Origin: Amoebophrya sp. A120 | Taxonomy: Eukaryota > Protista > Dinoflagellata | Length of the DNA: 64,000 bases | Assembly: GCA_905178155.1 (NCBI GenBank) | Contig: CAJINV010000001.1 | Span: 1,433,363-1,497,362, forward strand | Direction of reading: 5' to 3' | In this document: piece after piece, positions 2,555 to 50,579 of the stretch | Position numbering within the stretch: position 1 is the first letter of the stretch | Layout of the letters: each line of letters opens with the position of its first letter | Program-made: the position numbers and the translations under genes | Notes under the pieces: generated by a model | Seen by the model: the letters and a program-made list of their open reading frames with translations, nothing else | The model's database searches: none | Told to the model about the DNA's origin: nothing

Positions 2555-3517
2555 TTGTTCTTTGGCCATGATCGCGATAATTTGAATTGCTCAAACCAGT
2601 TAATAAATAAGGTACCGGAGCAGATACTAAAATCCATCACGCGGCACGTCTTCTACATCGATTCCAACGGCCTCCTGATGGCGCTCGAAGCACTGCGGGA
2701 CAAGTCCAACGCAATGGTGATCGACATCGTGAAGGAACTGGAAAAACTGGAAGAGCTATCAGCGCCGGGATGCGAAATCCACTTCAATTGGGTGCCGTCG
2801 CACCTGGGAAACTACTTTAACGACTTTGCAGATGCACTTGCAACAAGGGGGCTGCGTTACGTTGGAGACTCGTCGGAGGGACGTAAAACCTATGAAAAAG
2901 TTATCACTGAAAAGTTGCTCAGGCGGATCGTGAGCCAGATAGTGAAAAGCAGCCCCCAGAGCAGTAACAGCGCCCACCCCGACCTACTAAGGAGGTCAAG
3001 TCAGCTAGGAGAGTACCAAAGTGAGGAGAAAAGGCCGAGGTTTGTAGACAACGTCATGGTTACAGTGTGGCTAGGGGTGGGCCACCCAGGTCAGTTAGGC
3101 ATGGGAAGAACGACGCACAACGCACAGGAGCCAAAAAAGAGCTTCATGACCTGCCCAGTCTGTCAGAAGAAAGTAGCGCCAAGCACAGACCACCTGCTTT
3201 TTCGGTGCGAAGACCCCAAACTAGTGCAATTGCGAAAAGAACACTTAGGCGCGCCATGCAAAAAAGACATGGAATCTTGCATAAGTATTGTCCGGGAGAG
3301 AAAAAGCGTGAAGGGCATCCTGAACTTCTACGAGAAGGCCTCGCAGACGTATGGCGGAATTTTGCCCACGGGGCTAGCGAACGCGATCAGAGGAGGGCAA
3401 GCGGTTTTTGACGAGGTGGACTACAACGACGTGGCGGAGTGGCAACCGGAGAAAAAGCAGAGCAAGGTCCACGAGAGGGACCTGAACAAAATAGCGAGCT
3501 GGATAGGGCGACTATAG
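2555..3517 (+). mobile_element. 5'-truncated non-LTR retrotransposon ORF2 fragment (RNase H plus CCHC zinc finger)
   Basis: YIDS...FNWVPSHLGNYFNDFADALA is the RNase HI C-terminal half; CPVC-x9-HLLFRC finger follows, as in RNase H-bearing LINE clades; no RT visible. Confidence 0.75.
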
Positions 3518-9581: not shown

Positions 9582-12500
9582 ATGGGTCGTGGAGGAGGAA
9601 AGGGCCGCGGAGGTGGCGGAAAGGGCGGGGGCGGCTACGATTGGCGGCAGCACGTCGAGGCGTCAAGCGATCCGCAAGTGCGAAACCGCGTCTGGATGAC
9701 GATTGATAATTTTTCCAAGAACCCCGCTGCGCAGGAACTTGAGCTCGACTCCTGGCAAGTGCGTGGTCGGGAGCAGAATACCTACAAGCAGATGGTGAAA
9801 GAGTTTCCGGGGATTCACTTCGAGCCGGGGGGCAAGTACCGCGGGGCGCCGACGCTGAAGAAGATCGCAAGGAGAGACGGGACGATGAAGTACGGGGGTC
9901 ATCTTACGGGAAACACGAACAACGGAGAGGACGGAAACAAGAACGAGTCCGCAGCAGGAGTTACGTCGTCCACCTCCCAACACGAACTACATCCCTTCGC
10001 CCGCCTTCGCGACATTTGCGTGGAGATCGTCGGGCTGGAAGCCGCGCAGGCTGAGGACGCCAGCACCGCAAACGGCGCTTGGGTCAAGACCCGACAGCTG
10101 CTTCGGGACGTCCGGCAAAACGAAAAACCGCTGTGGGAGGAGCTGTGCGCCTTCCACAACTTTGCCAGTGCCGGCGACAAGGACATCCGGAATCTGAAGA
10201 GCGAGGACTTGGCAGTGTTCAAGCGCTACTTTGAACTACCCCCAGCCGCGGACGGGTACGACTATCTGAGGCCGCTGCTCTATGGAAGTGTCAGAATCGA
10301 AATTGACAAAATCGAAAAAAAATTTGCGATGCATAGAATCGATACCAGTTGAAGCCTCAGTTTCCAAGTGGCGCATGACAAATTTCGGGAGCACCCAAAT
10401 CCAGCCCGTCACTTTGTTTGGGCAAAGAAGATTAGACTGCTCCTGTCATGCTACTGCGGCAGCACATTGCATATCCCGCCTAAACAGGCTTGCAATCGGT
10501 CTCATTTGCCTGCTCGCCAATACAGGCCTTCAGTGCCCTACATTTTTTGCATCACAAATTTTTCGATTTTGTCGATTTCAATCCTGACACATCCATATGC
10601 TCGACGGGGTGAAGAAGATCCGGAAGACGGAATACTGCAAGCCGGTTTACTACCGCGACGTGGCGAAGTTGCGGGAGCTAGACGACAACCTCGCCACTGC
10701 GCTGAACAAGACGCGGAAATTCGCAGGGCACGCGGGCGGCGGGCACACTTTCGACAAGGATGAGTTTTTGAGCAGCAATTTTGGGAAAAAGAAAAGACGA
10801 GCTGCCCCGGCCGCGCCGAGCGATCATGCCGCCGCGAGCAAAAAGCAAAAAACCGACAGCAGCGGCGAGAGGGATGAAGATTACGAAATGGATCCTGTGG
10901 TCGAACAGCTCTCGTCCAGCGGAGAGGATCTTCAGGTCGACGCGAGAGGGCCTGATGAAGACAGTGTGGCGGAAGATGACGACGAGGAGATGGTAACACG
11001 ACGAGGTGGACCACACGCAGATCTATCGTCCGATGCAAATATAAAAGTTAAGCCAACTCCTGCTGGTTTCGCGCTCCCGACGGTCACCCGCAACCCGTGC
11101 AAAGTGTATCAGGAGCGCGTGCACCTCCGGAAATGGCTCCCCGCCTACAAGGCCGGACGGCAGTTCGTGAGAAGCGTTTTTTCCCACGATGTTGTGGTCC
11201 TCTGCGGCGCGACGGGGTGCGGGAAGACCACACAGCTACCGCAAATTCTCATGGAGTACTGCAACGACACCGACTCTGCAGCTACCAGCGAGGACATCTG
11301 CCGCCGCATCATTTGCACCCAGCCGCGCCGAATATCCGCGACCAGTGTCTGCGAGCGGGTGTGTATCCTACGAAAAAAGTGTTACAGTTACACATTTGTA
11401 GTGAATTCAGCAACACAAATTTTTCTGCATGAGAGAGAAAACTTGTAATGCAGAAATCCTACGAGAAAACACCTATAAAACGAGGCTCCTAGTATGCATA
11501 TCCGGCATGACAGAGCTTTTCTGTCTTGCTTGGCCTGCAACACAATGTGTAATTGTAACACTTTTTTCTTGCGATAGTGTGCTACGAGCGGGGCGAGACG
11601 GTTGGTGACCGCGTCGGGTACCAGATCCGATTCGAGCGGAAGGTGCAAAATGCGGACTGCGAGCTTCTGTACTGCACGGTCGGGATACTGCTTCGCTTCC
11701 TGGTCGGCAATCCGAAGCTGAATGGCGTCGATTTCGTTATCGTGGACGAGGTGCATGAGCGCGGTTTGCACACGGATTTTGTTCTCCTCATCCTGCGCGA
11801 TTTGGTCCGGGAAAGGAAGAAACTCGCGGAAGAGGGAAGGGGCGAATATGCAGTGCAAAAGCATCGTACTAGTATAAATTGCATGGCAAATTGACTTAGC
11901 ATTACAAATCAAATTTGTAATGCGGATTTGCCTTGCCCTTGGAAACAAGATTTGTAATGCAAGACTTGCATTTGTACGAGTCCGATACTTTTGCACGGGA
12001 TAGCGGACCGCTGAAGCTGATTCTGATGTCCGCGACCATCGACGCCAGCTCCTTTTTGGAGTACTTTGGCGAGAAGAACACCGGGCCGGGGTCGATCCTG
12101 AACGAAAGCGAAGGAGCGCGGTTCTCCCGGAACCCGCTCACCGTGGACTTCATCGACCTACCGGGTAAAACAAACTATCCCATCGAGGAGTTCTTCGCCG
12201 AAGACCTGTTCCTCCGTGGGGTTGTGGACCAAAATTTCCACATCAAGGGCGCCCGAGGACCCGGGGAGAAGAAAAAGTTGTGGCGTGGTCCTGGATATCA
12301 AATGCAAATATGTCTGGGTCTGGAAGAATGCAGCCTTGTCATGCATATTTTCCATGCCCCATGGGGTCTGAAATGCAGGGCCTAGCATGACAGATTCTGC
12401 GAAGTCTCTATCATGCCTATCCTGCGTGAGAAACTCCCGCTCATGTTGGTCAAAAAAGGAAAACGCTTGATGATCACGCAACACAGATTTTGGTGTGACT

Positions 12501-15500
12501 CACAGGACGCATCACAAGTTCCATCCTCCCAGGCCCAGACATTTTTGCATTTGATACTGGTGGAGGTGGAGGCCACTGGAACAACCAACAAAGCAGCTCC
12601 ACGACGGTATCAAAAGGAAAAATCCCCCCTCCCCATATTGAAAAGGTATGTTGCCGAAAATTTGCGTTGCTGATTTAAGGTCACAAATCGTCTCTGTGTT
12701 GCATGAAGGCAACGCCACAAGCTCCGCCGCATTCTACAGGCGGTCTGTCATGCTGTTTTAGCTACAGCGCAGACGTCTGTCATGCTAAGCGCCTAGGCCA
12801 AAGCCTGCCGACTCAGGCTCAGTATGTGCCTGCAGTCCTCGCCAGCAAGACAAATCTGATTTGTGTACGCACATCCAGCAGCAGAAGCTTCGTTTTGATA
12901 TGGGGAGGGGGGATTTTTCATTCTGATAGGGTGGCGGGGCCGCGGGTAAGGATTGGCGCAATCCCGATGTCACTGAAAACGACGTGTGGACCTTTCTTGA
13001 TTCCCACGCGAAGGAACAGGTAAAAAGTGGAGTTTTAGTAAAGCAGAATGGTGGACGAGAGGGCGACGTATCTAAGAGCATGGTGATGAACATCTCGAAT
13101 CTCCTACACAGACCCCTGGCCATGTATTACAGTGAAAAATGCCTCCGCCCCAGAACTTGGCAGCATTTGCGTTGCAGACCTTTCCTATGGAAATTTTCCC
13201 CGTCTTGCATGTATCAGCATCACAAATTTTCCATGCTGAAAGTGAATAGCTCAAACCTGTGTTGCAAAGGAGACCAACAGCAGTCGGATCTGTTATGCAA
13301 AAGATGCCTTGCGTGCCCAGATTCTGCATCAGAAAGGCTCGTAGTCCTTTCTTGCAAGACAAAAGGCTTTCAGTTGGAAACTTTGCATGAGAAACTCTTT
13401 CGCACATTCCGGGGTGGGGGCATTTCTCATTGTAATACCATGGACACGGATTTCATCGCGCAAGTTGTGCAGTACATCGAGCGGGAAGAGATGCGAGCTG
13501 CGTACAAGAATGATCCGCATCAAAGGAACAATTATAGGGACAACACCAAACACGATCGTCACCCTTCAACAGCTGCATCCTCGTCGTCTTCCACCCCTTC
13601 CGCCGGCGCCATCCTGATTTTCGTGCCCGGGTGGATGGAAATCACCGACACCATGAAGGCGCTAAAAAAGTTGAAATCTTCCACCCCGGACTTCAGCAAG
13701 AACGGCATCGAGTGGCGGTTCCTGCCGCTCCACTCCATGGTCCCTATGGATTGCAAAAATGTCTGGGTCTGGAAGATTGCAACTTGTGATGCTGTCTTTG
13801 GACTCGAAAAAAATTTGCATTGCATGACCAGCAAGAGGGGTACAATTTGTGTTACACGGACAGGGCATTTCTCATGCAGAACGTGCATCTGGAAGCCCTC
13901 TAAAAGTCTGCGATACTAGGTCATGCATTACAGGCATCATGGGTCATGAGAAATATGCATCACAGATCTTGCATTCTTCCAGACCCAGACATTTTTGCAT
14001 TTGATAGTCCCGCCGAATGAGCAAAATTTGGTGTTCAAAAAGGTGGAGAGGCACGTCCGAAAAATCATCATCAGCACCAACATACGCATTTTGCAAAAGT
14101 CAATCTCAATCGTACTCGTGCTTCTTCTAATCGCAGTCATGCATTAGAAATGTCTTTGTTTGTTCTGTAAGTCAAATCCGCATCAGAAATTTCATTTCTC
14201 ATCATGCTGCGAAAATTTGTAATGCGACTTATACTAGTGCGATGCTTTTGCGTTTGCAGTGCATACATTATTGCGGAAACGTCCGTGACGATCGTATCCT
14301 GGAAAAAAACAGTGTAAGTGTAACTTTGTAGGATGAGCAGCATGACAAATTCGTTTTGCATTACAGGGAAAACCTGTCATGCGCAGCTAGTACGTGGAAA
14401 CACGTACTATGAAAGCAGCCTGTGACCACGCACAGTCCAGCATGACAAGTATAACGGTGTTGCACTTTCTGCATCACAGACTTACACTCACAAAATTTTT
14501 TCCTGCGATAGATCGAAGACGTGGTGTATGTGATCGACACCGGGCTGAATAAGGGAACCACCTACACCCCGGAGACCAACATCGCCGCCTTAGAGACGCT
14601 CCAGTGCGCGCGCAGCAACGTGCAGCAGCGGCGTGGACGCGCCGGGCGGAGCAGGCCGGGGCAGTTCTTCAAGCTGTTTTCCAAATACGAGTGGGAAAAC
14701 TGCATGGCGGACCACGAGGTGCCGGAAATGCTGCGGACGCCGGTGGAGGAGCTCTGCTTGCAGGTGAAGGCACTGCAGCTCCCGGGGCTTCTGTCGATCC
14801 AGGAGACCCTGAGCAAAGCAATCGTGCCGCCGGAGAGACTGGCCGTGCAAAACGCGGTGGCCCTGCTGCAGGCCTTGGGGGCGCTTGTCGTGAACGACAG
14901 AAGTAGTTTTAATAGGGGCCGCGGCGCGGCGAACCCTGTAGAACAAGTAGATCGTCAGCAAGAGGAGCCGGAGTCTCTCACGCCACTCGGGTGGAAGCTC
15001 TCCATGATCCCCTGCCATCCCTGCCTCGGGAAAATGCTTCTGCTCGGAAGCCTGCTGTCGGGCTCCTCAGCATCCACGAACCCGATGAATCAATCGTCGA
15101 ACACGAACAGTAGTTCTAGTTCATCAGCAAGAAGAGGAGTAGGGTTACTAGAACAAGACACTTCTAGCAACATCCACCCGGACCTCCTGTCCATCTGTGC
15201 AACCCTGTCCTTCAAGACGCCCTTTGTCCTGCCCTTCGGCAAAGAAAAGGAGGCTGACGCGGCGAAGCTTAACTTCGGGTTTGGGCTGTGGAGCGACCAC
15301 TTGCTGTTTGCGAAGGTTATCCGCAGCAGAAACGTCGCCAACCCACAGTCAGGATGGGTAAATCTGCTAGACAAATTAGCCAGCTTTGGTTGTTGCGCAT
15401 GACAGCTTTGGCCTCGTAGTGGACTCCTCGACTTAGCTTGTTCAGCAGCATCACAGACCTCGCCTATTATGCTGAGCGGAGCATTACAAATCCCACTAAA

Positions 15501-17223
15501 CGACTAGAAAATGCTTTTCATGGGGGTCCGCATAAGAAACACTTTGAGCATGCGGAATTGCATGACAACTATGTGGTGGGGACGTTTTTACATAGGATAA
15601 AGGTGTACTTCGAGTTTGCGAACAAGTTTCACTGCCAGCCCCACGGCGGCGGGTTCTACGATTGGTGCGACAGAAACTTCCTAAGCAGCAAAACGCTGGA
15701 GATGACGGAAACCTGTCGCAAGGACCTGTTGGGCTACTTGAAGGACCTGCATCTCGACGATGGTAGTAGTGTTGCTCGCCAAGGAAAAATGGATTACAAC
15801 GCCGCCCTGACGTATCCCACGGAAACAAGGCTGTTCTTTCACTGTCATGAGTTTATTGCAAGATCTGCACCTTGTTCACAAGTTGGTTACACATAATGGC
15901 ACAGAGAATTATTTTCCATGCGCGCTTCCCAATTGAAAACACCTTCACTATATATAACTCCAATGTCTTTATGATGCACGATGTGCTGTAAGACAAATAG
16001 CTACTAAGTTTGTAATATTCCATGCTATGCATCACCATGACAGTGAAACAGTTCTTACTTTCGATAGAACTCCTCGAAAGAAGGCGCTGCTGCACTGCGT
16101 GCTGGCGGCGTCGCTGAACTTGGCTGTGCAGCTGCCTTCGGAGCAAGTGTTTAAGGGATTGACCGACAAGGTCTCCTGCCAGCCGCACCCAAGTTCGCTG
16201 ATCAAAAACATCGGTGCCGGGAAAAAACCGAAGAGAACTGCTCGAGGGGCGAACAACAGTGACGGCGCGAAGCTGCACCTGGCGGCCTACTTCGAGCGGA
16301 TGAAGACCAGCGAGGTGTACTTACGGGACAACACCTTGATCCAAGATGTTTTGCCCCTCGTACTCTTTCTCCCAGAAGTGACCCAGCGACAAGAAGTTGC
16401 TCCTGCAGCTATTGAAGACGACGTTGACAAAGACAACTACAGTTCATCAACATCCTGTGTTTTTGAGGTGAAGGGCACGGATCTGCTCATCAGCGTGCCC
16501 CGTCCAGACAACGACTCAGACGTGGTTCTAGCTGTTGATACAGGGCGGGCGGGCCGGGGCCACCAGCACGGGATGAACAAAACCAACGGCGGAAGGAGCG
16601 CGCAAAGTTGGCACAAGAACAACAACGAAAAAGCTTCTTCCTGGGGACAGAACTTCTACGACGACTGGGGAGGACTGGAGGACGACCACATGGATTGGGA
16701 CGATGATGCTGGGTCGTGGAAAGATTTTTACGAAGAAGACCACGACAGGTCGTGGAATAAACAAGTGCAAGATGATCAAAGTGGTCCACGAGGATCGTCC
16801 CCTGCCACATCTTCAGAGGAGCAAATCGCGAACCTGCTCGCTTCCATCCGACAGAAACTGAATACGCTGATTGACCGCACGATCGGCGTTTCTGCGCAGC
16901 ATCTTCCCGCCGAGGTGGGCGCTGCTTTCCACGTGTTGCAGCAGGTGCTCGAGTATGCATTGCAAAAGCATGGTAAGTACTAGTAGAAATCGCATGACAA
17001 ACAATTCTCTAAGCATGAAAAATGGAATTTGTAATGCGGATTCACCTGCGCAAAGAGATTTGTAATGCATGATTGCAATCAGTACGAGTGCGATACTTTT
17101 GCAGTCCATATCGAGGCCAGCTACTCCGAAGCAAATGAGCAGGATGTGGAGTGCTCTGCGTGCGACAAAGTGGAAACCTTTGTGCTGCTGGAACAAGCGG
17201 ATGAACAAGAGGAAGGGTTGTAA
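9582..17223 (+). CDS. DEAH-box RNA helicase, DHX36/DHX57/DHX29-like; 13 exons
   Basis: Motifs [51 protein letters not shown] and an HA2 region; all 12 junctions join in frame; TAA at 17221. Confidence 0.93.
10281..10597. mobile_element. Introner, family D
   Basis: TATGGA.GTGTCAG.AT.GAAAT TIR; TSD TGCTC. Confidence 0.92.
11364..11576. mobile_element. Introner, family F
   Basis: TATC..GAAAAAAGTGTTACA.TTACAC TIR; TSD GTGTG. Confidence 0.9.
11847..12002. mobile_element. Introner, family C
   Basis: Family TIR; TSD GCGAA/GCGGA. Confidence 0.88.
12296..12556. mobile_element. Introner, family A
   Basis: TATCAAATGCAAA.ATGTCTGGG TIR; TSD CTGGA/CTGGT. Confidence 0.92.
12608..12928. mobile_element. 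Introner, family B
   Basis: Family TIR; TSD degenerate; removal restores frame. Confidence 0.85.
13125..13437. mobile_element. Introner, family B-like
   Basis: TATTACA.TGA.AAATGCC TIR; TSD CCATG. Confidence 0.88.
13745..14006. mobile_element. Introner, family A
   Basis: Family TIR; TSD GTCCC. Confidence 0.92.
14083..14265. mobile_element. Introner, family C (degenerate), inside helicase motif V
   Basis: TSD CAACA/CATTA; removal restores STNIAETS. Confidence 0.8.
14295..14510. mobile_element. Introner, family F
   Basis: Family TIR; TSD GATCG. Confidence 0.9.
15318..15599. mobile_element. Introner, family E
   Basis: Family TIR; TSD AAGGT. Confidence 0.9.
15813..16066. mobile_element. Introner, family G
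   Basis: CTGTT..TTCACTGTCATG TIR; TSD degenerate; removal restores frame. Confidence 0.75.
16954..17110. mobile_element. Introner, family C
   Basis: Family TIR; TSD TCGAG. Confidence 0.9.
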
Positions 17224-17950
17224 CCGTAAGTTGCGTAAGCATGGACGACCATTGCTCAGAAGTGTGAAAACTACTAGAAGGTTCTTCCCGCCGGCGCTCT
17301 GGAGCTGGGCCACGGCGCTGTTGTGCATCGCATGTGAAAAGAAAAACTTCGAATTCCTCGAGCGATAGCATTTTCAGGCCCCCTCATGTTCTGGATTGTG
17401 ACGTGAGCATTGTGTAGTAGCTGTTTTCTTTTTCTTTGAGACAAAAGAGCGGACAACGGCGCAACAATCTGGAACGCTTTGCCGATGTTTGGAGTACTAG
17501 TTGGTACTCCGGTTTTGCGTATTTTTTGTGTTCAACAACCGATCTCAAATCGACTTCAACGATTGCTGCATCTCGATACTACGCACGGTCTTAAGTTATA
17601 ACACAAGCGACGTCATTATTTGAGGAGAGAAAATTACTTGAAAACAAACATCGAGATCGAATGCGAGGGACGGTCGAGAAAGTACTAAGGGAGCTGTTAG
17701 AGTTCTAATGTGCGAGTGAAAAGATGAACTCGAGACCGAGAGCAGGGGGAGAGAGCGAGGGAAACTGCGCACACGGTGGAACAGGGCGCAGGAAGTATCA
17801 GGAGAGATGAGACTCTGGACCGCGTTGTATTCATCGTTCTTTATTTATTTTCACCGGAGAGTATTAGAGTGTCGTGTGGTAATGACAACTCGCAGTTTAT
17901 ATCTTCGATCGAAGTACCAGAGAGAGAAAGTACGTAAACGTACGGGCCGC

Positions 17951-20900: not shown

Positions 20901-23900
20901 CGACGTAGCAACGAGGGCGGTTTTCATCGATTTCAACGTACTTACTATTTTTGCGATTTCGATAATAAACTTGTGCATGGTCGTTTGCTAGTATGAAATC
21001 AATGTTGTTGCCCCGGCAGCTGCCTTTGTTTCCGTTTACGCCAGTTGAGATTTGTTTCTTCAGAGTTCGTTGATTCGATTGATGATTATGATCGCAGCAC
21101 CAATAAACTTGATTGAAGTTCTTGTTGTGCATAATTTCGTTCAACACTCGATTTACAGGTTTACAACGTGAATCTCGGGTATTACGGGGCAACGAAGCTG
21201 GTGTTCGAAATAACACCGAGCGGGAAAATGGAGAACCGGCTTGACTTCACCGTGGTCACGGACCGCTACATTGAGCCCAACTTCGATGGCCAGATGATAG
21301 CTGAGATGGTGCTCATACTGTTCGCGGCTTATTACATAGCCCAGGAGCTGTCCGAATTTAGTATCAGCAAAACGGAGTATATGCAGGTAAGAAGGGAAGT
21401 TTTTGTACTTGTATCATTGTAGAAGTGGAGATCATGAAATAAAAAGTAGAAATAGATTTAGATGCTTATAACAAGAATAACTGTCGAGTAGCTAAGAATT
21501 TTCAAAATCGTTAGCTAGCTTTCAAAAAAGCATGTTGTAAATACCACCTCTGCAGGTGCGGAATAGATATTTAATTAGCTAGTAGGAATGCTGTCACGGA
21601 TGCGTCTCGTAACGCCGAGGGAGAATCAGCACGGTACTGCGTCGAATGCCATGATTTTGGATTTGTGTTGCATTATTTGAAGGACTACGACAGCGGCACT
21701 ATATCAGGTGGCTTACAGCTACTCGGTCTGCTACATAAACCTAAGCTTCGGTTGGAAAAAATAACAATTGAATCGGGTTAATAAAAAGCATTTTGCAGTA
21801 TGTGTTTTGCATGGGGAGAGGAGAACTGTGATATTATAGGGAGCATGAATGTGATGGATTTTGAAACTAAAAACAGGGTCCCTTTCGTGTGGTTCTTTCG
21901 ATGTTGTTGTGTGCACTTCTACGACCTCTTGAACGTATTTCAATTCCTCATCTCAGTCGTACGACATCATCTATTTTACGACTTACAAAATGGGAACACA
22001 ACCGCACGAGATTGAGAAAAAGGCACGTCGCGAATTTGCATCAGACATTTTGGAATGGTTTGATTTGAAATTTATCTTTGAAACCACAAGCGACGTATTT
22101 ATCCGACCGAAGCTGAACGCTTTTCCTGATCATCCCAGCAACGCGGAGCACTATGCTGGGATACAGCTGAAAAGTACGAAGCAGTGGAGCGGTGATTTCG
22201 AGCGCCGCATCAAGTTCATTTTGTGCAACGAGGGGGAGCGTCTTCATGGAACTATTTTGGTCGGCACCAGCCTCGACGACACGGACAAGTACTTCGTTGA
22301 TGTTGTCCACAGAGTCGTGGACTATTCGGATTTTGACGTAACAAGTTCGGTGGTGACGAAGGAAGAGCTGCCGGCCCGCTTGCGTCGTCTGTGGGGGTGC
22401 AACATGGTCGTTCGCCACATGATGGTTGGAGCACTGTTAAATGCTTACAGCCAAGAAACTCTCGTCGAGAAATCGGCGCGGGACTTGTTCATCAAGCAGA
22501 TCGAAGAGACGGACTTGGTGTACGAACCTGCTACGACGGAATTCGACGCCATCGATGGCCAGCTGTATCACAAATCCAATCCAGATCAGAAGTGGGCGGT
22601 ACAGGAAAAAACTTTGTATTGGCGGAAGGAGCACGGGAAAAGCCTCAATCTCCGGTGCTCGCTGAAGCGGTACCACTTAGCGCGTTCGCAGTTTTTCACT
22701 TAGTCTTGCATGAGCTTCCACGCACTGCTGCTCCCTGCTATTTCCATGACAATTAACTGCCAGGTCGCGCGGCAAAACATACAAGGTTGACGATGCTGAT
22801 TTTCTGCTGGTGCATTGTCGTACGAAGCCGGTCGTTGGAAGCTTCAACGAACTGCACGGCAGCGCCTTGATTCCGTTCCGCACCCTCCACGAAACAGGCC
22901 ACGTTGGAGACGAAGAGAGGTACTACCATTATTGCATATTATCATTGAAAAATTAGTGTGAGCTTGATGCTTGTTTAGTGCATAGCAACTACTCATAGAA
23001 ATGCGATAGTCAAACAGAATGAAAACACAATAAAAAAACAATTATCATCCAGCGCGGGCAAGAAAACGCTGGATCTGTATCCGAACGCACCGGGAGTAAA
23101 AAAACCAAGACTGGAGGGAGTTCTTGAGCAGTACTACGTGCATGCTACGACCGAGAGCTCATTTGCCACCAGGCTGACGTCGATTCTGAGCGACCACGTG
23201 AACGAGTCCCAATCTTCATCTTCTTCTATGCAGTAACAGAACCAAAACGACGATGAACAACAACAAAAAACAGGACGATGATGGTGGTGCAATAGAAAAA
23301 CCCATACGAAGGAACACACAATCAACACGAAGGAATTTTTGTCATGCGAAACGCGTGCAGGATGTTGCTCCTGCAGCGGCTAAGAAGTAGTTTGCATCGA
23401 TTGGGAGTTCCAGTGCAAACAAATAATTATTTTTATGTTGTGACTTTGAGTCTCACTTGCTACAAGTTGTAATGCGAAATCCAGGTTTTACGAAATGAAA
23501 CAAGAACTAACAAAAATAGAAAATCATTAACATTTAATTTTTGAATTCTCTTCTACGGAGTGCGTATCTCTAGTCAACAGCAGATGGTTTATGAAAGTGA
23601 AATCTGAGACGAGGTGGCAGAGAAGTTTGTCATGCTAAAGGGACTATGGATATATACAAACGGCCGCATCACAAGCCTAGCCATCGTCTCAGCTTTCTTT
23701 CCATAAGTTTCACCGCTGAAGTTTCGGGGGTATAGACGAGAGGTATTTTTTTTGAATACGAAACTATTAATCTGTGCAGTCAAAATCAACTTCTGCACCA
23801 AATAAAGTTCTGCTGCTATTCTTGTACTGAAAAAGTGCACTGCAGCTTTTCACAAAGCGTATAATTATAATTTTTATATTACTTTATATTCATATACTCT

Positions 23901-26900
23901 TGCCTTCGTCTCACCAGTGTCAGGTGCTATTCTTGCTATGGTCCGCACAACCTTGCCGAAGACCAGTTTTGCAATATCAACAGTCGAATTTGTCATGCGC
24001 ATTGCCCTTCTGTGACAACGTACGGAAATCGACAAAAATTATTTGCATAAAAGCCTTGCGATTGTGCCTTTTTGGAAATGTCTCAAAGCAGTGATTACAC
24101 GCATGACAGATTGGCAATTTTGGTTGGGCATAGGAAAGGTTGTCTGGTTGCATAATGCTGTAAAAATAATCACTTCACGTCGTGAAATTGACCAGTGCTG
24201 CGACCTGATACGAAGAACAGAAAAAAGAAAAATCAAATGATTAGCTCAAGAGGCTGTTTCCTGTTTTTTTCTCTATGGTGCACTTCTTGAGATGCTTGTC
24301 CCAGGACTCGATTGCATTCTTGTGTTCGGCGATTTGCTGCGACGACCGCTTGTTGGACTTGCGGTTCCCGTACGCCTCCAAGAACCCCTCGTCGCCCGGA
24401 AGATCACTTGCGGATCTCGGCGAGACATGATCGAGCAAGTCCATCTGCGTCCCGTCCGCCTGCGATTGGGCTTCTTCATCCCCTGCTTTCCTCCGTCGCG
24501 GTCCGTCGGCCTTGATCCAGTCAGCAGCTAGCGCAGTTTCGAACACAGAATCCGGAACCGGAATAGCCTTGTTCTTGTTCGGCCCTGCACCGTCGTCGAT
24601 CCGCCGAGTCTCGAATTCATCTTTTTCCAGATCGAATTCCGCGACGACAAACGGCAGCAAATCGCTCACGACGTTTTTGGTGACGTCGCCACTCACGCCG
24701 CACTCCGGGCCGTACTTGACGTGGGTCGGGATGTAGGTGTCGCACCAGCCCAACCGGATGGTGTCGCTCACCAGACCTTGCTGATTGCGGTGCGACTTCA
24801 TGGTTGCGATTTCCTTTGGCAGCAGATCAGCGAGCGAAACCACCGAGTACTGGTACACCGACTGCAGCCGTTTTACCCCGTCCATCATGGTGCTGATGAC
24901 TCCCTTCGGACGACCGAGATGTTCTTGCGGTGCCAGAATACGCGGGTTTTTCTTCTTCTTCTTCTTCGCGAAGATTCCAGCACCACCAAGCTCTTCTTCA
25001 TCCACAGCAGTAGTCAGGGTGACGATCCGGGTCGCGAACTCGTGGTCAATCGGATCACGCGATATGAAGTTGGAAAACCCTGACCACACAAAAAACGCTC
25101 TATGAAATAAAAGTAGCATGACAAAGTAGACAAGTTTGCCACTGCATGAACATGTTCGGTATTTGTCATGCTAGAACTACGTACAACCACAGCAGAGCTT
25201 TATCATATAGCGTTTTTTCGTGGTCAGTGGTTTTTAGAGGAGATATCGTTTGCCATGCACTGGAAGAGGCACAACTTGTTCTCGCTGCTGAGCAAGTTCA
25301 GGTGCTTATCCTTGACGAACGGAAATTTGGTCTGGATTCCCTGCAGTAGCCCGAGCTGCAGCGCGTCGGGGATCGTCGGAAACATCAGCGGCATGTAGAT
25401 CGCGGGCGTGGACCACAAGTTCGAGGCTAAAAACACCTGCGTTGGCTCATCGCCAGTTTTCTGCCGGCGCACAACGCCCTCGTAGGTCCGCAACTGCGTG
25501 AACAAAAACGGCTTCTTCTTCTTCGGTTCCGTAGTAGTTGGAATGCGGAAAGTCATCGGTCCGAGCCGACTGAGCTCGACCGCCTGAACCCAGCCGCCCA
25601 TCCAGTTCGACAGGCGGTAGTGCGTAGCGGTTTCCTGGGGTTGATCGACGGGATGGGCGATAACCCAGGTCTCGACGTCCTTGATCTTCACCTCGATGTC
25701 GCGGTCCGCGCCGAATCGGTTACCCAACGCTTCGTAGCCGCGGATCTGGTCTTTACTGATGAAATCGCCGTTCATGATGACTTCGGCTTTCGCGGCGCGG
25801 AAGCCGTACTGGTGCGCAGCAACAGACGTGAATTGCTCGGAGATCGTGTGGTCCAGTATGGTCCGGACGAGTTTCGGAAGGGATTTGTACTGTTTCCAGG
25901 CGTTGTGCGCGGAAAATTTCAAATCCTTGAACGCCTTGGTCAGCTCGGTGCCGGAATCTTTGCCGAACGTGCGCTGCTGGGCGTTGTCGAATAGCAGGTG
26001 CGACAGGTCTGTGCCAGTGGGTGTACTTCCCTTGCGCTTCATCAGCAGCTTCAGCAGTGTGGATATTTCGCGGGGAGTAAGCAGCTCCAGCGCCTTCGGA
26101 TCGCCGACCCGCTCCGGTTCGTACATCCGGTTGTGCATGGCAGAATACGCGATCCTGTGCACCTGCTTGCTCGTCATCAGACCGTCTGCTTTCTGGCCTT
26201 TCCGCTGGGTCACTTTCATCTCGCGAAACTGACCTTCCTGCCAGAACTCGGTGATGGGGAGACAGCGGACCACGCGGATGGACCATCTGTTCAGCAGCTT
26301 CCGCGCGTGTTCTTCCGGCAAAGAAAATACCGCGAGTACGTTCGTTTTCGCCGACACGCCCAACTCGTAGATGCAGAGATCGCCTAGTTTCTCGGCTTGT
26401 TCCGGCGTGATTGTGGTGTGTCCGTAGCCGAAGGACTCGAAGAGGCCGAAGCTGGGATCTCCGACTTCGTAAAACCACTGGCTCACGCACCGCTGCATGC
26501 AGAACCACGCCGGCCCCTCGTGCAGCTTGGATTTGTGGTATGCAGAACAGAAATCGTCCACCAAATTGACGAACGTTCTGTTGCGGTTTTTACTGCGACT
26601 GCGCTGCACGATTTCGGTCGGAAGCGCAGTGTTCATCTTCGCGTCGGGATCGATGTACCTCTTGTAGGAGTTGTGCAGCTCCTTGGTCCTCAAATTCGGA
26701 TAGCACTTGCCACACTTCTCCAAGTGCAGGAGCAAGGTGTAGTACGTGAAATGGCCGCGGACGACGTCCTGGTGGACGCCGAACAAGTAGTAGTTCAACT
26801 CCTTCAACTCCTTGTACATTTCCGGATGGTATCCGAGCCAGCCTTCCTTCTGCAGCTTCTTCCGCAGCGCGACGTCGGGTTGGATGAAGATGGGTTCATT

Positions 26901-29900
26901 ATTCTCCACGAGAATAGCGTCAGTGCGCTTCTTGGTGAGGTTCCGTAGAATGCAGGTGAAACTGTGCATGACAAATCATCTGAAGATCTACCTGAAATCA
27001 TAAATCAAAGCAACCACTTTTGTCATGCAGAAACAACACTCTTCAGATGATTCCATATGCACGATTTCACCTGCATAATGCGGCCTTTAACCTTCTCACG
27101 ATCCGCCAGCGCGCAGATGATAAACCGGGTGAGCCAGTACGATACCTGCATCGTGTCGCACCACAACCACATACCGAAGAACCGCGACGCCGCGCAGTGG
27201 AAGGTGCTATAGCCTGGTATTATGTGATTTTATCATATAAAAACGATGCAATTCTGTAACCTCAGATGAGGGCCTCCGGAGGGGGGCCTAGACCCCCCCC
27301 CTATAACCCCCCTCTATAGAACGCCTTCATTTTTCTTCGCCGCGTGGTATGATGGACTCAGGAGGGGTACCGAGACCCCCCCCCTATAGGGTCGCCTATA
27401 CCCCGTCATAATGCTTCATAATAATTGTTCCATTTCGCCTATTCTGAAAATAACAAAAAGGTGCAACAATACGTGTCGCAAGCGCCGACTTCACCGTGGA
27501 AGAATTCTGCTCTTTCAGCAGCTCCTTCCGGTATTTTCGCTTCAACGACGCCGGCTTATCCTTCACCTCCTCCTCCACGAGTTCGTCCTTTGCGAGAAAA
27601 AACTCGCCTTGGTTGTTTCCCTTGTTACGCGGACCAGTGGCCCAGTGGTCGAGCATGTCTTTGGCGGTGACAAGTCCCGGAACGCAGTTTTTGCAGTTGT
27701 TGGAGTGGCGATGCAACGGCCCAAAGTGGGTCGTTCCCGGCAGGAACAGCTCCTGACTTTGACCTGCACGAGAACCGTCTCCGCCTTGGTCGCTCATGGT
27801 GTGAAACTCCAGCAAGGGCTTCGTCGTTTTGTCGAAGTTTATCAACCACTCCGTATCCATGTCGCGCCAGCTCCTCTCCTTCGGCACAAACCGGGCCTGC
27901 AGCGCGGCATACCCGAACTGGGTAAAGAGTATACAGTGCCAAGATGACCACTTATTTGCTATTTTTGTGCTGCGTAGTTCCATGCAGAGTAATATTATTC
28001 ACGATGGTGTTGTAGAGGACAAAAATAGCAAAAAGTGGTCACTTTTGCATTCGATATTCCACTGGTCGAGGTAGAGGTGTCCGATGTACTGGGATTTCTT
28101 GTTCGGCGCCTTCGACGTCAGCTGCGCCAAGCCGCCAGTCTGTATTGCGTTCGGCTGCAGAATCTGCGACAAGAATCCCGGCTTCTTCGGCGGAATACCG
28201 TGCTCCGGATTCTTCGGATCCACATCGGAATAGTAAATGAACTGGTTATTTGATGTTTTATATGATTGTATTCCCATGCAGCATAAGATTATGCGCGACG
28301 GTATGACGCTACTTGATCAACAGCAAGTATGCACATCTTCATGCACGTGATAGCATGGCGGATAACTTTACTCACGGTGGAAAATCTATAGGTACCGCTG
28401 ATCCCCACGCACCCTGTGATCGCACCGTGGACGAATCCGCCAGCAGACAAACAGGACCTTCTCTTGCACCACAGTCGACGCGAAAAACTTCCCGAATCAA
28501 TTTGTATTCCGGATCGTTCTCGTCTTGGGCGGCAAATGCGCGGTTCAGGATGACGAATTCGCCGTAGCGGCGCAGCGCAGCACACTGTTTTTTGATATCG
28601 ATTGCTCCATGCAGAATAGCATTATACTGCATGGCACTATATGCGTGCTTCTTATCATCATCGTGCCATGCGGGATAATATCATGCACGGTGGAGCTGTT
28701 GCGTTTACTGGTATCCACAAATACTGCCGTCGTGGATAATCTTATGCTGCGTGGTATGATCGATATCAAAAAGCAGGAAAAACACCTGTGCTCGCTTGCT
28801 GTTGTCGTCGGCGCCGGGTCGGCCCAGCAGCTGTATTGCCTTGCGTCGGATGTGCTCCACGGACAGCCAAAGGTTCAGAACGTCCAGGTCCGCCAGCTCG
28901 TCGCGGAAGTTGCAATTCCCGAACTTGGCGTAGACCACTTGCTTCGACTGCGTCAAGCGGTGCCACAGGTAAATGAATGCCTTGTAGTATTCGTGCATTA
29001 GTATTTGTTATGCAGCAGTAGTGTCATGCGGAATAACATTATACTGCATGGCATCATGGCTCCAAAATTCCACATACCAGATCCCATTCGTCGCCTGTCA
29101 TCTGCGGGCACCACGTGATCTTCCCGTGCTTCCACAGATCCCTCGGAGCCGTCACTTTCAACCAGAAGTCGTATCCTCCGGGTGACGGAGCAAGACTCTT
29201 CGTCTTGTACTGCGGACGGCCCGTGTGCGGGCAGCGGATGGGAACGTCCCATCTGGTCGCCCGCGACTTCCGTTTCTTCTTCGGCGAAATGACGACGGAC
29301 GCGGCGGAATCATCGCTCGAAGACACGTCTTCGACGCCGAGCAATTCTTCGAGAAGCCAGTGATCCTTCTTCATCTTGATTGGCGGGTCCAAATGCAGGC
29401 TGACGTAGTAATCCACCGGAATAATCCGCTGACCCTCCTTGTCAGCGGGCGGCTCATCGGGATCCAGCTGCAGCCGCGCAGGCGGCAGCTTTGGCGGAAG
29501 CATCATCGCGTGATGCTACTTTATCTCATCTCTCAGTAGTATCAATCAGCACAAGACTACGGGCGTAGATGGAGGCAGATATATGATGAGGACCTGGAAG
29601 GTTGGTTATCAAGACGTCGCTACTGCACATCTCTCACGGCCCCTGCGACAGCGACCACTTGTACGACCCAAATTGCACATCCACATTGACCGACACATTC
29701 TTCACCCAGAAACCGAGCAATCACATCAAGGCGCACCACAGACGCATCAACACTGCCTTTCGCAGCTTCAGGTACTTCAATTTTTGATTAACATCACGTC
29801 AGAATAGTGAATTCAATATGCGGCTCAGCTGTTGCGAAGTCTTGTGCATTGTCATCACGTATTCTGTCTCACAGGAGGTTCGTGCGCTTCGCATAAAAAC

Positions 29901-32900
29901 ATAATTTTTTGTCACAAAGACAGCCACGGCGCGCGTAACTGCCTTCGTAACGAATGCGGTGGTGTTGGGTAGTCTACTATTTTCATTTTTTAATGTAAAA
30001 GTAAAATTAATTTTTTACAATATATCTGTGCAGTTATTGATAAAACTGCCACCATCGGCACCGAGATTGATGGTGGCTCAAAATATAATTTGATATTATC
30101 AAAATATCATTTTTTCATTTGTAAAAACAACATAATGCGAGACCACCAGCTATATAGAGACTTGAAACGACATCAAGTATGGCAAGGAAAACACAGCCTC
30201 ACACGTAGCAGCTCTTCAACGACGACGTGCTTTGTGATACATATTTGCATACCTAGTTTCTAGGTCGTATTGGTGCAGTGTGAGGCTATGTTTTCTCACA
30301 TGATACTCTGGTGGTCCCACAGAAACATAGAACCAGGACGCACTGTCCTGGAACAGAAGATCGAGCCGAAGTGTCAGTCACCTACGGCAAGGCCTTTTTC
30401 ATCATTTTCTTCATGGCCTTCGACGAAGAAGACGGGACCTGCGAGTGCGACGCGCGGGACTCACGCTTCATCGCGGTCTTCATCTTCCCCTTCAACGCCT
30501 TCTCCGCGTTCTTGATGTCCAGCGCGTCCTCCTTGGACTGCTCCTTCGACAACTTGGCGATCTCGGCCATGATGCGCTTGTTCTCCTTGGTCTTCTGGAT
30601 CGCCTGTTTCTGCTGGCGCGGAGAGGCCATGAAGTCGTCGATCGCCTTCTGGTCCTTGGGGCCCAAGATGGCCTCCAGCGCGTCCTGCATCTTCTCCTGC
30701 GGGGTCTTCGCCATGGGGTCGGCACCCTCGTGGATCGAAATGCGCGCTGCAATATGCTATGCAAAAGTGTCAGTTTCATATGGAAAATTCGATATTCAGC
30801 ATGACAGACAAGAACGCGGCTTCTAGGCATAACATGCGCGTCGCTATCGCGACACAAATACCACAACGTGCGCAGTTTCAGCACGTCGTATTTCATGTAA
30901 ACACGTGTTGCGCGTGGTCACATACGAGCCTATTTGAAGATACCGAATCTGCATACACAACTAGCACACGAACGAGTACACTTTGACCGAATTTTCCACA
31001 TGAAGCTGACACTTTTCACAACGCGTAGTGCTTGCCCTCGTTGTCCAGGAAGTCCAGCTTCAGGGGGACCGGCGCGACGGACGCCTGCATCTCCTCCAGG
31101 CGGGTCTTGGCCTTACCGACGGAGGCCTTCTGTTCCTTGATCGCGGAGGCCACCTTGTCGTCGGCGGCCTTGAAGGCGGTGGGGTTCACGCCCTGGGACA
31201 TGGTCTGCGAGTTGGTGGTCGGCTGGGACGCGGAGGTGACGACCGGCTGCATGAGCATCTGTGTTGGATGTTCAATCACAAATTCGGATTTGGTGGTGAC
31301 AATACGAAAGATGAAAACCGATTTTTTTCTTTACGACAGCATCAACTCCAACTACAACATCTCCGCTTGGAAAGCCGACTTATTTCTGTTCTACGATAGC
31401 AACTACATTACCTGTCCGTTGGGTCCGGGGGTCATCTGAAAGACCATCTGCTGGGACTGCTGCATGCCCATGTTCTGCGAACCGAGCGGGGTCATCCCGA
31501 CAGCGGGGGTCATGCCGATACCGGGGGTCATGCCCATACCCTGGGTCATCGCGGGGGTGGTACCCATGCAGGACTGCATCGACTGGGCCTGGGCGACCTG
31601 CGCGTTGGCCACGTTGGTGGCACCGTTCTTCGCGGAATTGGCCAAGTCGATCTCATCGGGGGTCGGGCAGCGGGTGACGGCCAAAACCCACTGGGGCGAC
31701 TTGCCGCACTTCGACAGGGCCAAGGCGGTGGTCTGCAGGTTGCGGAACCGGGCAACCGGACACTTCTCGATCAGCTGTTGTTGGTGTCGAGGAGGATAAT
31801 GTTGTTCATCAAAGTTAGCAATACGATATCCACGTGCAAACTCTATGTGGGAATACAGGATTTACAGCGCCATATGTGTCATGCGTATTTGTACTATGAA
31901 AAAGCATGACGCAAACACAAACTTGTAATGCATGTATACCAGGTGGGGCGGCACACGCATCTCGATGAGCAGCCATTTCCACTGGATCTCGTGGTAAATC
32001 CACCGGCACACCCACATAGCAGATTTCCGGCACAAAGTACTCAACAAGATCTGGCAGATTTCCAAGGGCAACTCACCATAGCCTGAAGGTGTTTTTGAGG
32101 AGAAAATTATATGAGATGATAATCATGTGGGGAAAATTCACAAGCACAAAAAATCTCTCACTCTCACTCAGCAAAGGTGTGATGGAAAACATGCATATTC
32201 TATACGGCATGGCACATGCCCCAAGTCCTCCATCGAAACAATTCCTGCATGCAACACAAGGTGTGTAAGCCAACGTCTACACTTACGTTGGAGAGAGCCG
32301 GGAAACGCTTGGCGCGACAGCTGATTCATCATGACAAACCCGTGCTCCTGAGCACTCAGCTCCTCCTCCAGATCTTCCATCACAGCTTTGTGCAACGCAA
32401 TGTCTGCGGTACTCATTTTTCCGACCTGGGCCTTGATAAATTCAAGGGCTGACTGAGGCTGCTTCTTCGGCGGCATTATGTGTTTGTTTGTCAAGCTGTC
32501 AGCGTATAGCCGATGCTGAAAAAAAACTGCTCTCTCACGTGAATTTCCCCTACGGTTTTTCATTGAGTGGCCAATTGAAAAGAAGGTTGGATGAAAACAT
32601 GTGCTATGCGCTATGGTGATGAAATTTCGAAGACGTAAGAAGACACAACTACTTGACACGGAAAGCAACTCAATCGCCCGGGGATCTCACACGCAACTCA
32701 AACTTGGAAAGCGGAAGTACAACATTGACTTACGGGGATCTATTTTGTGGAGGCAAAGTACGGAGGAGATGCTGCAATACGGAAACAGATCAGGTAGTTC
32801 GTTTTCTTTCTCGACTTCACTAGAACAGACAAATCAGAAAAACATTTTAGAATTTGGTGTTGACAACATTTGAGAATTCTTGTTCGTAATGCAATGCAAA

Positions 32901-35900
32901 ACAATATTAAGGCTTGCACACGTCTGAATTCAATTTCTAGTCAGGCACTTATCCGTTCCACACATATTTTTCACACAAACTCATGTCCACAACACTTCAA
33001 CATCATTCGCTCCTCAGGTCCACTCCCGTCGTCCCACCTTCGGCTGGTCCATAGGCTACGGCGTCGCCAGGGTTTAGCGTTATGAGACGCATCCGTGACA
33101 GCATTCAGGCTAGCTAGTTCATCGTGCTAATAGCACCGTAAATACAATGCAAACAAGTAGCTATTTTTAATAGCTAGCGAATGATTTTGAAAATAGCTAG
33201 CTACTCGACAGTTATTCTCGTTATAATGCTGTGAATGATGCGAAAATGGAACGAATTCCTCACGACTCACGTTGATCTGGAACGCGGGATAGCCGTTCTT
33301 GGCTTTGTTCCAAAAACTCACGCTGAGACGAGGAAAGATATTACTTAAGTACCCCATGTACCGCATTTGAAAAAAAACACACACAGGACGGCTGGAACAT
33401 AATGGATTGGGCAAACCTGATACTGCTCATCGTGTACGCGATCATGCGCGTCCTGGCATTCAGCACCGCGGGCGGGTCGGTGAGCACGGACATCGCCAAT
33501 CAGGCGATGCTGTTCGACTTGACCAAAATAGCCTACTATATCAAGGAGATGCGGAGTTGGAACGCCTACAACGCCGTCTTGATTTGGGTGAAAACGGTGA
33601 AGTATGTTACCTTCATCCCCTACGTGACCATCATGATGCACACACTGAAGTACAGCTGGAAGTTCTTCATCTCCTTCGCCGTCATCTTCTTGTCGATCTT
33701 CCTCGGCTTCTCTGTGGGCTTTGTCGGAGGGTATAGTTTAGATAGGGGATCGATTGTTTCTTTTATTCTTTGCCTTGAACTACAATTGGAATAAGTTTGC
33801 TGACAAGAAGTTCTTCATCTTCGTTGTACATACTAGGTGCAAGGCATATCTAAAAAAAAATAATCCCTCGTCGGCATTTGTCGACAGAAACATCATGCTT
33901 CTAAGAAGATGAAATGCAGCTCTTGTCTTCTTCTGAGCCGCCTCCATCTTGGTAGCCCGTTGTTCTTCACGATGGAACCTTCTTAGCATGTTGTTTTTGT
34001 ACTAAAAAAATCTGCAAACGAACCAGGTTCGGCGACAAATTCGAAAAAGTGAACACGTTTGGGAAGGCCTCTTTGTTTCTCCTGCAGTCATTATGAGAAC
34101 GCACAACTTCTCCCCCTCTCCGCCGCGGCCCTCATCTGTCATGCAAAAACCCAATATACGTATTCACCCTTTTCCCCTTATGTCGCAGTTTGCATGACAG
34201 GTTTCTTCCGGGAGCCCAAACAGCGCTACAATCCTGAGTTGCGATTTGTCATGTATGAATATAACAGGAATCTCAACTGCACTCTTAGATCTCAACGTTG
34301 AGACCTCACAGCTCAACGTTGAGAAATATATCTCAACGGCCGGCTCACGAAATCGATGCCGCCTGCTCCACTAGGGTTTCGGGTTTAGGGCTTGGGGTTT
34401 AGGGTCGTCGGGCAGGGCAGCCGCCGCCGGCCGGCCGGCCGGCGGCGGCTGCCCTGCCCGACGATTCTCTTCTTCTGCCCTTGTGCAGTGCCTTCCCGGC
34501 GCGCGTGCTCCCGTTGCGCCTTGTGCTTTTCTAATTGTGTGGCCTTCGTTTCCCGCCCGGTCTGTTGCTCTGGTTTTTCCATGGGGCTGCAGTCTTTTGC
34601 GCCGGTGAGTTCTTGGGCGTGTTTTTCGTTGAGACCAGTCGTTGAGCTCATCGGAAAGTCGTTGAGGCCTATCAGGCCGTTGAGATGCACTTGTTGAGAT
34701 GAAACCGTTGAGATTCCTGTATAACAACCAATATAAAACCTGCACAACTTCGCTTGCCCATGCTTCTCTTGCTGCTCATGCGTAGCGTATGCACCATTAC
34801 AAATGGCTTCGGTTCAAATCAGATTATCAAAATGAAATCAGATTATTACAATCAGGCTAGTTGTGCAATCAAGTTACTGAATTCAGAATATCACTGAAAT
34901 CAGGGGTCTGGGTAGGGTTTGGGGTCTAGGGTTTGGGGTTTCTGGTCGTCGGCCAGGGCAGCCGCCGCCGGCCGGCCGGCCGGCCGGCGGCGGCTGCCCT
35001 GGCCGACGACGCTGTCTTCTCGTTGTTGCGCCAATGCGCCCCGGCGCCTCGCCCGCCCTTCTGCTTGTGCTCTTGCCCCGTCGGGGGTCTCGCTGACGGA
35101 CCCCGCCGGACAGCTCCTTGGTCGGCTGGGCGCGTCACTGATTCCGGCGGACCGTTAGGGCCGCCCGGCGTGCGTTCGTTCAGGTTGGTGTAGACACTTC
35201 GCTTCCTTCCTAAGTTGTTTCGCTTCTAGTTGAGTCAACTTCAACAAATCTGATCTCACAAAAAATCTGATTTCAGTAACCTGATTGCATTTCGTAATCT
35301 GATTCCACAATTTACGCAATCTGATACGACCAGCGTCCATTACAAATGAGGGGGAGCAGCAGGAGGGGTAGTTGTGCGCTCTCATACTCGTTCGTCGGCT
35401 CTGCTTCCTTCGGGGAGATGTACAAGCTGTCACCGATTTTGGCGGGCGTTTTGATCGGGATGTTCATCATTTATCCTGAGTGAAAACGTCCCCACACCAG
35501 AGTCAAGATGGGGAATCTGCTAGACAAATCAGCCAGCTTTGGTTGTTTTGCATGGCAGGTTTGTCCTTGTATTGTAGTGTTGTTTATTGAGGTAGTTCAG
35601 CAGCATCACAGATCTAGTGCATCATGCTGATTGAAGAGTGACAAACTCTAAAACACGATACGAGCAAAATGCTTCTCATGGGGCTCCGCATGAGAAACTG
35701 AAACACTTTCAGCATCATGCAGATCTGCGTTACAACTATGGGGTGGGTGCCACGTTTTTAAATATGATATCATTTTGATTTTCTTCATCCTGCTCAACTT
35801 GTTTATGGCGATCATGGTAGTCGTATCAACTGCAAAAATGTCTGGGTCTAGAAGAGTGCAAGTTTGTCATGCTTGTCTGGCATGACTCTCAAATCTGTGT

Positions 35901-49979: not shown

Positions 49980-50579
49980 TGAGGTCACCGAACGGTTCTA
50001 ACCAGGGAGTTTTTTTGACACCTACCGTGAAAAACGACCGGAAGTTTTCAAGCGGCCGAAGGCGTTTTTTGACATAAAAAGTTTCCAATTATCAAGCGGC
50101 CGGGGCTTTGATATCAAACAAGCCCGGTCGAAAACTATCGATTCGCACTTGATAAAACGACGCAGGGGAGCCGGCAAAAGGGGCGCCCTTCTGAGGCGCC
50201 CACCGCCTTAGTTTCTGGCGATTTGGGGCTCCCAAAAAGGGGCGCGCAAAAAACGCGCCCAAAGTCAGAACAGCGAAACAGCATGGCACGGCCGCGATTT
50301 CGGAGCATTTTGGGCGGCCGCGAAAGCGGCCGCCTTTTCGCCGGTTTCAGAGCCTGGGAAGCTTTGCAAAAAGCGCCGGCGTGAAAAATAAAAACGCGAA
50401 AAAGAAAAAGCGACACAGACGCGCAAAGCCAATCCGCATGCTATGGGCCCGATTTCCCTTCGCTTTTTGGGCGCCCCCCGTGGCACCCGGATCGGCTCCA
50501 TAGCATGGGAGCTGGCTTTCGGAAAGGAATTTCGGAGATGTGCTAAAATTCGCGACGTTTATCGAGCGGCCGCCATACC

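Follow-up and report, generated by a model that had tools for sequence, protein, structure and literature searches.

A spaced 11-bp motif shared by introner families of Amoebophrya sp. A120 as a predicted subterminal site for their transposition

The introners of the dinoflagellate Amoebophrya sp. A120 are described as elements with inverted repeats that start with TAT, followed by seven variable bases and a run of A, with 3-5-nt direct repeats and non-canonical junctions (Farhat et al. 2021, PMC7789003). Size classes near 106, 149, 209, 260, 278, 305 and 319 bp are filed as ‘TIR DNA, Unknown’ (TIR, terminal inverted repeat; PMC7789003; Gozashti et al. 2025, PMC12130899), while one family, fam38, is annotated with a ‘5-bp TSD, TA/TA termini’ (TSD, target-site duplication) and tentatively placed under Ginger2/Tdd (Gozashti et al. 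2025, PMC12130899). The text of these two papers reports no transposase for A120 and leaves the exact intron border open (PMC7789003, PMC12130899), and U1 small nuclear RNA is reported as undetected in A25 and A120 (PMC7789003). Among better-described transposons, hAT elements need subterminal repeats beyond the TIR (Hermes, PMC10368747; Kat1, PMC4763223; Tol2, PMC8151067), and those of Hermes are bound by BED domains (PMC10368747). Here we analyse 64,000 nucleotides of A120 contig CAJINV010000001.1 (positions 1,433,363 to 1,497,362 of the forward strand; the window), in which exons are interrupted by short elements that have TAT...ATA ends, are flanked by target duplications of 5 bp and share an internal motif, GCAT[G/C/T]ACA (the strict motif, counted on both strands). 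On balance, we read this motif as a predicted subterminal site in double-stranded DNA that would be needed for the transposition complex, probably read by a paralogue of the transposase encoded by a giant element of the same window.

The window elements match the published introners in their ends, their direct repeats and their non-GT-AG removal; the inverted ends consist of TAT, about 7 nt and a run of A, as in A120-type introners. Among 60 ends found by requiring TAT, position 9 is G in 43 and positions 11-15 are A in 51-59. In the published text, figures aside, the shared internal motif and its spacing are not described (PMC7789003, PMC12130899), and no earlier description was found in the literature on introners, figures, bioRxiv supplements and subscription papers (including Roy et al. 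2023) aside. As a structured shared site, the motif is probably undescribed.

Of the 125 strict matches in the window, 107 lie inside 42 curated elements (11,181 bp), for which 300 dinucleotide shuffles give 2.6 ± 1.6 matches, with a maximum of 8; at least one match is present in 40 of the 42 elements and at least two in 30. The giant element holds 14 matches against 1.6 expected; in the remaining 40,817 bp of the window, with one interrupted element additionally masked, there are 2 against 3.8 ± 2.0 expected. The original prediction, that the motif recurs on both strands across dissimilar families and is scarce in host exons, is borne out at 11847-14510, where all 18 strict matches, on both strands, fall within seven elements (1,712 bp), the 952 bp of intervening exon being free of them; 11847-12002 and 13745-14006 carry three each and 14295-14510 carries five. 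Across 66 sequences annotated with a simple gene-finder, predicted coding DNA has 22 strict matches in 236,928 bp and further TAT-ended introns have 110 in 11,511 bp, while 19 of 23 GT-AG-like segments have none. The comparison of introners, exons and canonical introns proposed with the prediction thus came out in its favour: the motif is real, and exons are at chance level. Its predicted core was confirmed, and the true motif is longer, an 11-mer, GCATNACARRT, in place of the eight-letter form. The motif may resemble the ApiAP2 site TGCATGCA. The host gene and the introners on which the argument rests are as follows.

9586..17260 (bounds approximate), plus strand: host DEAH-box helicase gene with 12 introners
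11847..12002: family A introner, TAT...ATA, TSD GCGAA/GCGGA; strict sites at 11899 (+), 11916 (-) and 11953 (-)
12296..12556: family B introner; three strict sites; skipped in RNA-like contigs together with one copy of the TSD
12608..12928: family C introner; strict sites at 12746 and 12778, 32 bp apart
13125..13437: family C2 introner; one strict and nine profile sites; removed in RNA-like contigs
13745..14006: family B introner in the orientation opposite to 12296; sites at 13785 (-), 13925 (+) and 13957 (+); skipped in RNA-like contigs
14083..14265: older family A introner in reverse orientation; removed in RNA-like contigs
14295..14510: family F introner; five strict sites, a 46+/64+/88- module at one end and 40-/71- at the other
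15318..15599: family D introner; six sites, all sense; removed in RNA-like contigs
15813..16066: decayed G-type introner; no strict site; precise removal (in X4 only)
47535..47813: family D introner in reverse orientation in a plus-strand gene; five of six profile sites antisense

A pattern combining the element end with two sites matches 14 times in the window and never in 100 shuffles. It retrieved at least 156 metagenome loci (L001-L156) with the same families as the window; all come from one assembly and were picked via the motif, so that motif densities there are not unbiased. Viral contigs gave no match to the end-plus-motif pattern. A motif-independent TIR/TSD search of the loci found 430 elements, of which 349 have a perfect 5-bp TSD (detection required at least three matches). 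Across 267 oriented insertion sites in L001-L156, the target duplications show no base preference and a flat composition, so insertion looks sequence-random within exons; a preference for GT or AG at the target site was rejected on the same grounds.

Pooled with the 42 elements of the window, the search gave 472 elements: 435 copies belong to 13 multi-copy families, and the other 37 are singletons that include a few mis-paired ends. All 13 families carry the motif, which could in principle be an ancestral remnant that has no function, or could reflect compositional bias. Some remote kinship does exist: families F, G, K and A share the 46+/64+/88- module, and masking of the motif leaves N6/N11 and C/C2 alignable. 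Profile matches between families were found for 63 of 78 pairs, however, and fell to 3 when the motif was masked and to 0 when the terminal 30 bp were removed as well, against 37-41 left by random masks. The masked profiles of the short families A and N7 fail to recover their own family, which limits the power of this comparison for the two shortest families. Within families, motif columns are 0.77-0.92 identical against 0.53-0.78 for other interior columns, and higher in each of the 13 (at most 60 copies aligned per family, motif columns being defined from those copies), whereas the middle base of the motif, at 0.66, does not share the conservation of the core. Judged by these alignments, recent ancestry without function does not explain the sharing, and within-family conservation largely refutes ancestry or bias as an explanation, which we regard as very improbable. 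Both outcomes that the original prediction had set against itself, a background density and a recent common origin, are thus contradicted, by 107 matches against 2.6 and by the absence of any alignable pair after masking.

The elements hold about 2-9 sites each, and their arrangement is regular. Among same-strand pairs within 90 bp, 56 of 188 are spaced at 31-33 bp, and this direct-pair spacing is present in 12 of the 13 families. Each of the 26 family ends has its first site at a distance of 35-63 bp; at 19 of these ends the site points outward and lies at 40-41 (7), 48-51 (9) or 60-63 bp (3), a clustering with p=0.002 when one end per family is used. The spacing periodicity that had been put forward as a check is supported by these distances. 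Families A, F/G and K have convergent dyads whose two sites are 3 bp apart, and the sites at 11899 and 11916 form a convergent dyad of 25 bp. The three-turn spacing and the steps of 10 bp suggest that a protein complex assembles along a single face of the double helix. As in subterminal repeats, the site is repeated inside the TIRs at set positions and is conserved among copies. Since the site is conserved, set at fixed distances and strand-independent, and since recent ancestry is insufficient, a common protein-binding site is indicated, as had been proposed; of the two forms suggested for it, a subterminal transposition site fits and an RNA-level intron-definition signal does not, as far as sequence can tell.

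The latter form was judged from removal of the elements and from their orientation. In contigs assembled from runs X3 and X4, which represent one sample and are RNA by guess (the RNA-like contigs; X4 skips a GT-AG intron too), the element plus 5 nt is skipped exactly at 10 of 15 joints among those listed. The raw RNA runs X9 and X10 yielded just 8 and 3 partial reads, which were uninformative. Diverged TSDs restrict the cut to offsets -5 to -1 at 12296, -1 or 0 at the family C introner 12608-12928, -1 to +1 at 14083 and -3 to -1 at 15813. The sole register common to these four junctions, all from one sample, is N|TAT...ATA NNNN|, which cuts one base ahead of TAT and four bases past ATA and does not depend on GT/AG. 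When the 12 introners of the DEAH-box helicase gene are taken out at this -1/+4 register, a single frame of 1,547 codons results.

If the motif were an RNA-level signal, read by an RNA-binding protein or folded into RNA stems, its confinement to spliced non-canonical elements and its absence from most GT-AG-like segments would be accounted for, and some convergent dyads could pair. Families A and B, however, are removed in either orientation in the RNA-like contigs. Element strand was called for 323 of 420 elements, with a caller that matched the plus strand in 33 of 34 confident window cases. Copies of the polar family D in coding DNA are 20 sense and 19 antisense, and 14 of the 39 have no sense-strand site, as have 7 of 10 copies of N7; the family D copies at 20472-20778 and 57717-57995 have all their sites antisense. 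The variable base does not covary within dyads, with 12 of 30 cases against 14.5 expected in family A, 16 of 28 against 17.6 in FG and 34 of 89 against 46.9 for the outer pair of family B, and Rfam has no match in 11300-17200. Orientation independent of transcription, together with the lack of pairing covariation, makes a sense-strand RNA signal appear unlikely, the antisense D evidence being orientation in predicted genes; we give the RNA reading, in either form, very little credence.

The stage at which the site is maintained can be approached through the age of the copies. Core substitutions stand at 0.22 of expectation on internal branches and at 0.41-0.51 on terminal branches. In a final TSD clock, each of 493 copies was compared with its nearest perfect-TSD relative, with sites defined on the relative and copies below 80% coverage or above 50% divergence dropped. 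The core/other ratio is 0.40 (0.37-0.44) for perfect TSDs, 0.64 for three or fewer TSD matches (n=30) and 0.88 for two or fewer (n=12), and the ratio of the decay slopes is 1.05 (0.43-1.63). A core that is conserved between copies yet decays like neighbouring DNA with age points to a role in copying. These substitution patterns favour a constraint at the copying stage, the core appearing to decay with its neighbours within a wide interval.

A candidate enzyme for such copying is suggested by the giant element, which sits in an intron of a polycystin-channel gene and contains the following features.

21467..33225 (11.8 kb): giant TIR element with TAT...ATA ends, an about 150-bp imperfect TIR and a perfect TSD, ATGCT
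23300..24200: intergenic stretch, AT-rich, between convergent genes; six strict sites and no recognisable element
24241..29515, minus strand: multi-exon gene for a predicted hAT-like DDE transposase
28440-28417, 27794-27780 and 27713-27696: its motifs D1 (ADSSTVRS), D2 (SDQGG) and HRHSNN
Within 27199-27179, and 26249-26226: its motifs RF (RW in relatives) and E (EFWQEGQF)
26949..27077: old insert of the TAT type within the transposase gene; decayed TSD, TIR 15/18, two strict sites
21933-23235, plus strand; 30284-31300 and 31403-32490, minus strand: other genes of the giant

The product of 21933-23235 has no Pfam match; by eye it looks like a possible PD-(D/E)XK nuclease. The motif had also been noted in non-coding parts of the giant. 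This holds for the six matches in 23300-24200; the other eight of the 14 lie in old introner-like inserts within its genes. Among the inserts in the transposase gene, 25063-25245 has two strict sites, and 27930-28056 and 28594-28765 have none.

The minus-strand gene has 15 homologues at 21-28% identity, and the family shows motifs in hAT order (DxS/T, DQGS, HRLSNN, RW and ExxxExxF), each present in the window copy, with RF for RW. Among homologues, D109 is conserved in 7/7, D223 in 10/10, RW in 10/11 and E619/E623 in 15/15; the H of HRLSNN is invariant (9/9), and the upstream C of the hAT CxxH motif is absent from the homologues. Named members of the family are from Amoebophrya (AT5, A25, Ameob2), and the predicted transposase has a C-terminal KOW/SH3-like domain; of 16 homologues looked up for a window protein, 13 bear the name Amoebophrya. 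In an AlphaFold model of the homologue P0004 (predicted local distance difference test, pLDDT, 69.6), D1 and D2 follow strands, E starts a helix and a long helical insertion separates D2 from E. Compared with 48,161 chains, this model is closest to Hermes (Z 8.2, root-mean-square deviation 6.6, 366 positions aligned; the runner-up has 5.5), and the MULE-like ISCth4 scores Z 5.0; Hermes had been expected from the motifs ahead of the fold search. A sequence profile search of the PDB with the family returned nothing significant and known hATs gave no alignment of sequence that could be used, a word-based search with the longest frame of the giant returned nothing, and the Atlas gave no usable match. 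A model of that 564-residue frame alone has no clear fold match, which is uninformative because the piece does not contain the two aspartates. Each of these lines is modest; together they make a divergent hAT-like DDE transposase likely. The label is limited to hAT-like, as opposed to membership of hAT, the TSD not being 8 bp. The DDE triad, the helical insertion and the conserved W are predicted for the homologue P0004. The giant shows that such predicted enzymes exist here, not that its own copy moves the motif-bearing introners, and P0012 hints at a second transposase paralogue in a related metagenome assembly.

The site itself resembles hAT subterminal repeats, as far as the cited accounts describe them, in being a short repeat inside the TIRs, present in both orientations, asymmetric between ends and including palindromic pairs. 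It differs in being 11 bp long (hAT repeats are 4-6 bp), common to families with different TIRs and arranged in 31-33-bp pairs. The hAT TSD is 8 bp, whereas the introners and the giant have 5 bp, as has hAT5 (PMC12730594). The candidate transposase keeps the H, not the C, of CxxH and has no evident BED finger. For Ginger2/Tdd, the likeness lies in elements with TIRs, TDD-4 and TDD-5 making 5-bp TSDs, and the difference in the Ginger termini, TGTNR, against TAT in the window (PMC2836005). A Ginger assignment was rejected on the TAT termini and because the protein model from the giant's family resembles Hermes, not an integrase.

Several observations weigh against a subterminal site read by a relative of this transposase. 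The giant has no strict motif in its first or last 200 bp, and its TIR differs from those of motif-bearing introners; it is therefore not shown as their partner, and the N-terminus of its transposase, which had been put forward for binding assays, is not an obvious binder. Elements of 340-1,300 bp in the L loci contain nested insertions and no transposase frame, the transposase-family profile has no match there, and no motif-bearing autonomous element was found in these loci. Pfam has no match for the longest frame of the giant or for the 15 homologues; among the latter, no BED finger was matched by Pfam, and no conserved CCHH or CCHC pattern was seen by eye. Foldseek places Hermes fourth for the P0004 model (E 0.18, probability 0.60), and a Z of 8.2 is close to the top score that models lacking a clear match usually reach. 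First sites fit a period of 9-10 bp best, not 10.5, among families that are not independent. The terminal-branch depletion of the core stays at about 0.5 on the shortest branches and for rare alleles; an earlier TSD-clock test gave 0.65 with a wide interval (0.02-1.60), and the interval of the slope ratio only just excludes 0.40. The 31-33-bp pair is kept in 7 of 140 orphan intron-like segments against 0 expected, several of which have lost the TIR and have spacers at shuffle-level similarity. Finally, a host factor would likewise produce one motif common to families whose TIR interiors differ.

Several of these points suit a host protein that binds motif DNA and is recruited by all families, and that may aid movement and mark the segment co-transcriptionally for non-canonical splicing. 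Such a protein would account for one motif across families with different TIR interiors, for the persisting terminal-branch depletion and for perfect pairs, on either strand, in TIR-less decayed introns (L040, L048, L010 and L066). It would also agree with the 96 strict matches outside recognised families (28-47 expected) and with the reported lack of detectable U1 small nuclear RNA (PMC7789003). Against it, as TSDs decay the core is lost at about the pace of the other interior positions, 7 of 14 orphan segments with TAT ends lack a site, as do two of the transposase-gene inserts, the 15813 element is precisely removed with no strict site, and ordinary intergenic DNA in the window has the motif at chance level. 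We consider this host reading possible, though doubtful; the perfect pairs in a few decayed introns leave a host role open.

Decayed, TIR-less intron-like segments with two near-perfect sites were noted at L040:4567-4743, L048:2353-2477, L010:7177-7327, L066:2315-2417, L019:10713-10821 and L033:1648-1753; four of the six have the 31-33-bp spacing, on either strand, and the L040 segment is readable as GT...AG.

For the subterminal transposition site, which we favour, the data lead us to propose a model whereby a multimeric protein would grip several sites on one helix face while a catalytic site holds the TAT tips, an arrangement like that of Hermes, with its BED domains on subterminal repeats. 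With such a multimeric grip, only copies with intact sites would found new lineages. The predicted binder would be the DNA-binding part of a paralogue of the giant's hAT-like DDE transposase or, alternatively, a host cofactor, and splicing would depend on the element ends, not on the motif.

Other insertions were observed in and around the introners. An I-type introner at 34093-35385 is broken by two nested elements, at 34260-34723 (with TATAACAGGAATCTCAAC ends) and about 34806-35336, which have a common GC-rich palindromic core and separate end repeats, neither with the motif. Secondary insertions into introners (34794/35337; L040:3862-4492; L060:6001-6972) have 12-18-bp flanking duplications that wholly or partly include the motif, and others with (ATG)n or poly-A tails adjoin a site (L018, L019, L054, L060:10903). 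A long-TIR element at 59780-60620 and an insert at 49972-50545, the first 280 bp of which recur in L060 at 82% identity, have no strict match. At 2471-3517 (plus strand), an open reading frame with a weak RNase H match (E 0.00076) is possibly the end of a retroelement.

How the non-canonical introns of Amoebophrya move and are removed is left open in the published text (PMC7789003, PMC12130899), and this work contributes the sequence and spacing of a cis site, a family of candidate transposases and one register for the cut. That many families have a site in common suggests that one enzyme or cofactor stands behind the genome-wide intron invasion. A bolder view, which we hold to be unlikely, is that one DNA-binding protein, through a helically phased site in thousands of otherwise dissimilar introners, both drives their spread with a new lineage of hAT-like transposase and stays bound after insertion, marking the segment for GT/AG-independent splicing at the register given above. 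If the host makes use of the motif as well, splicing would be marked at the level of DNA, and under such a dual role intron identity would be written on DNA, not RNA.

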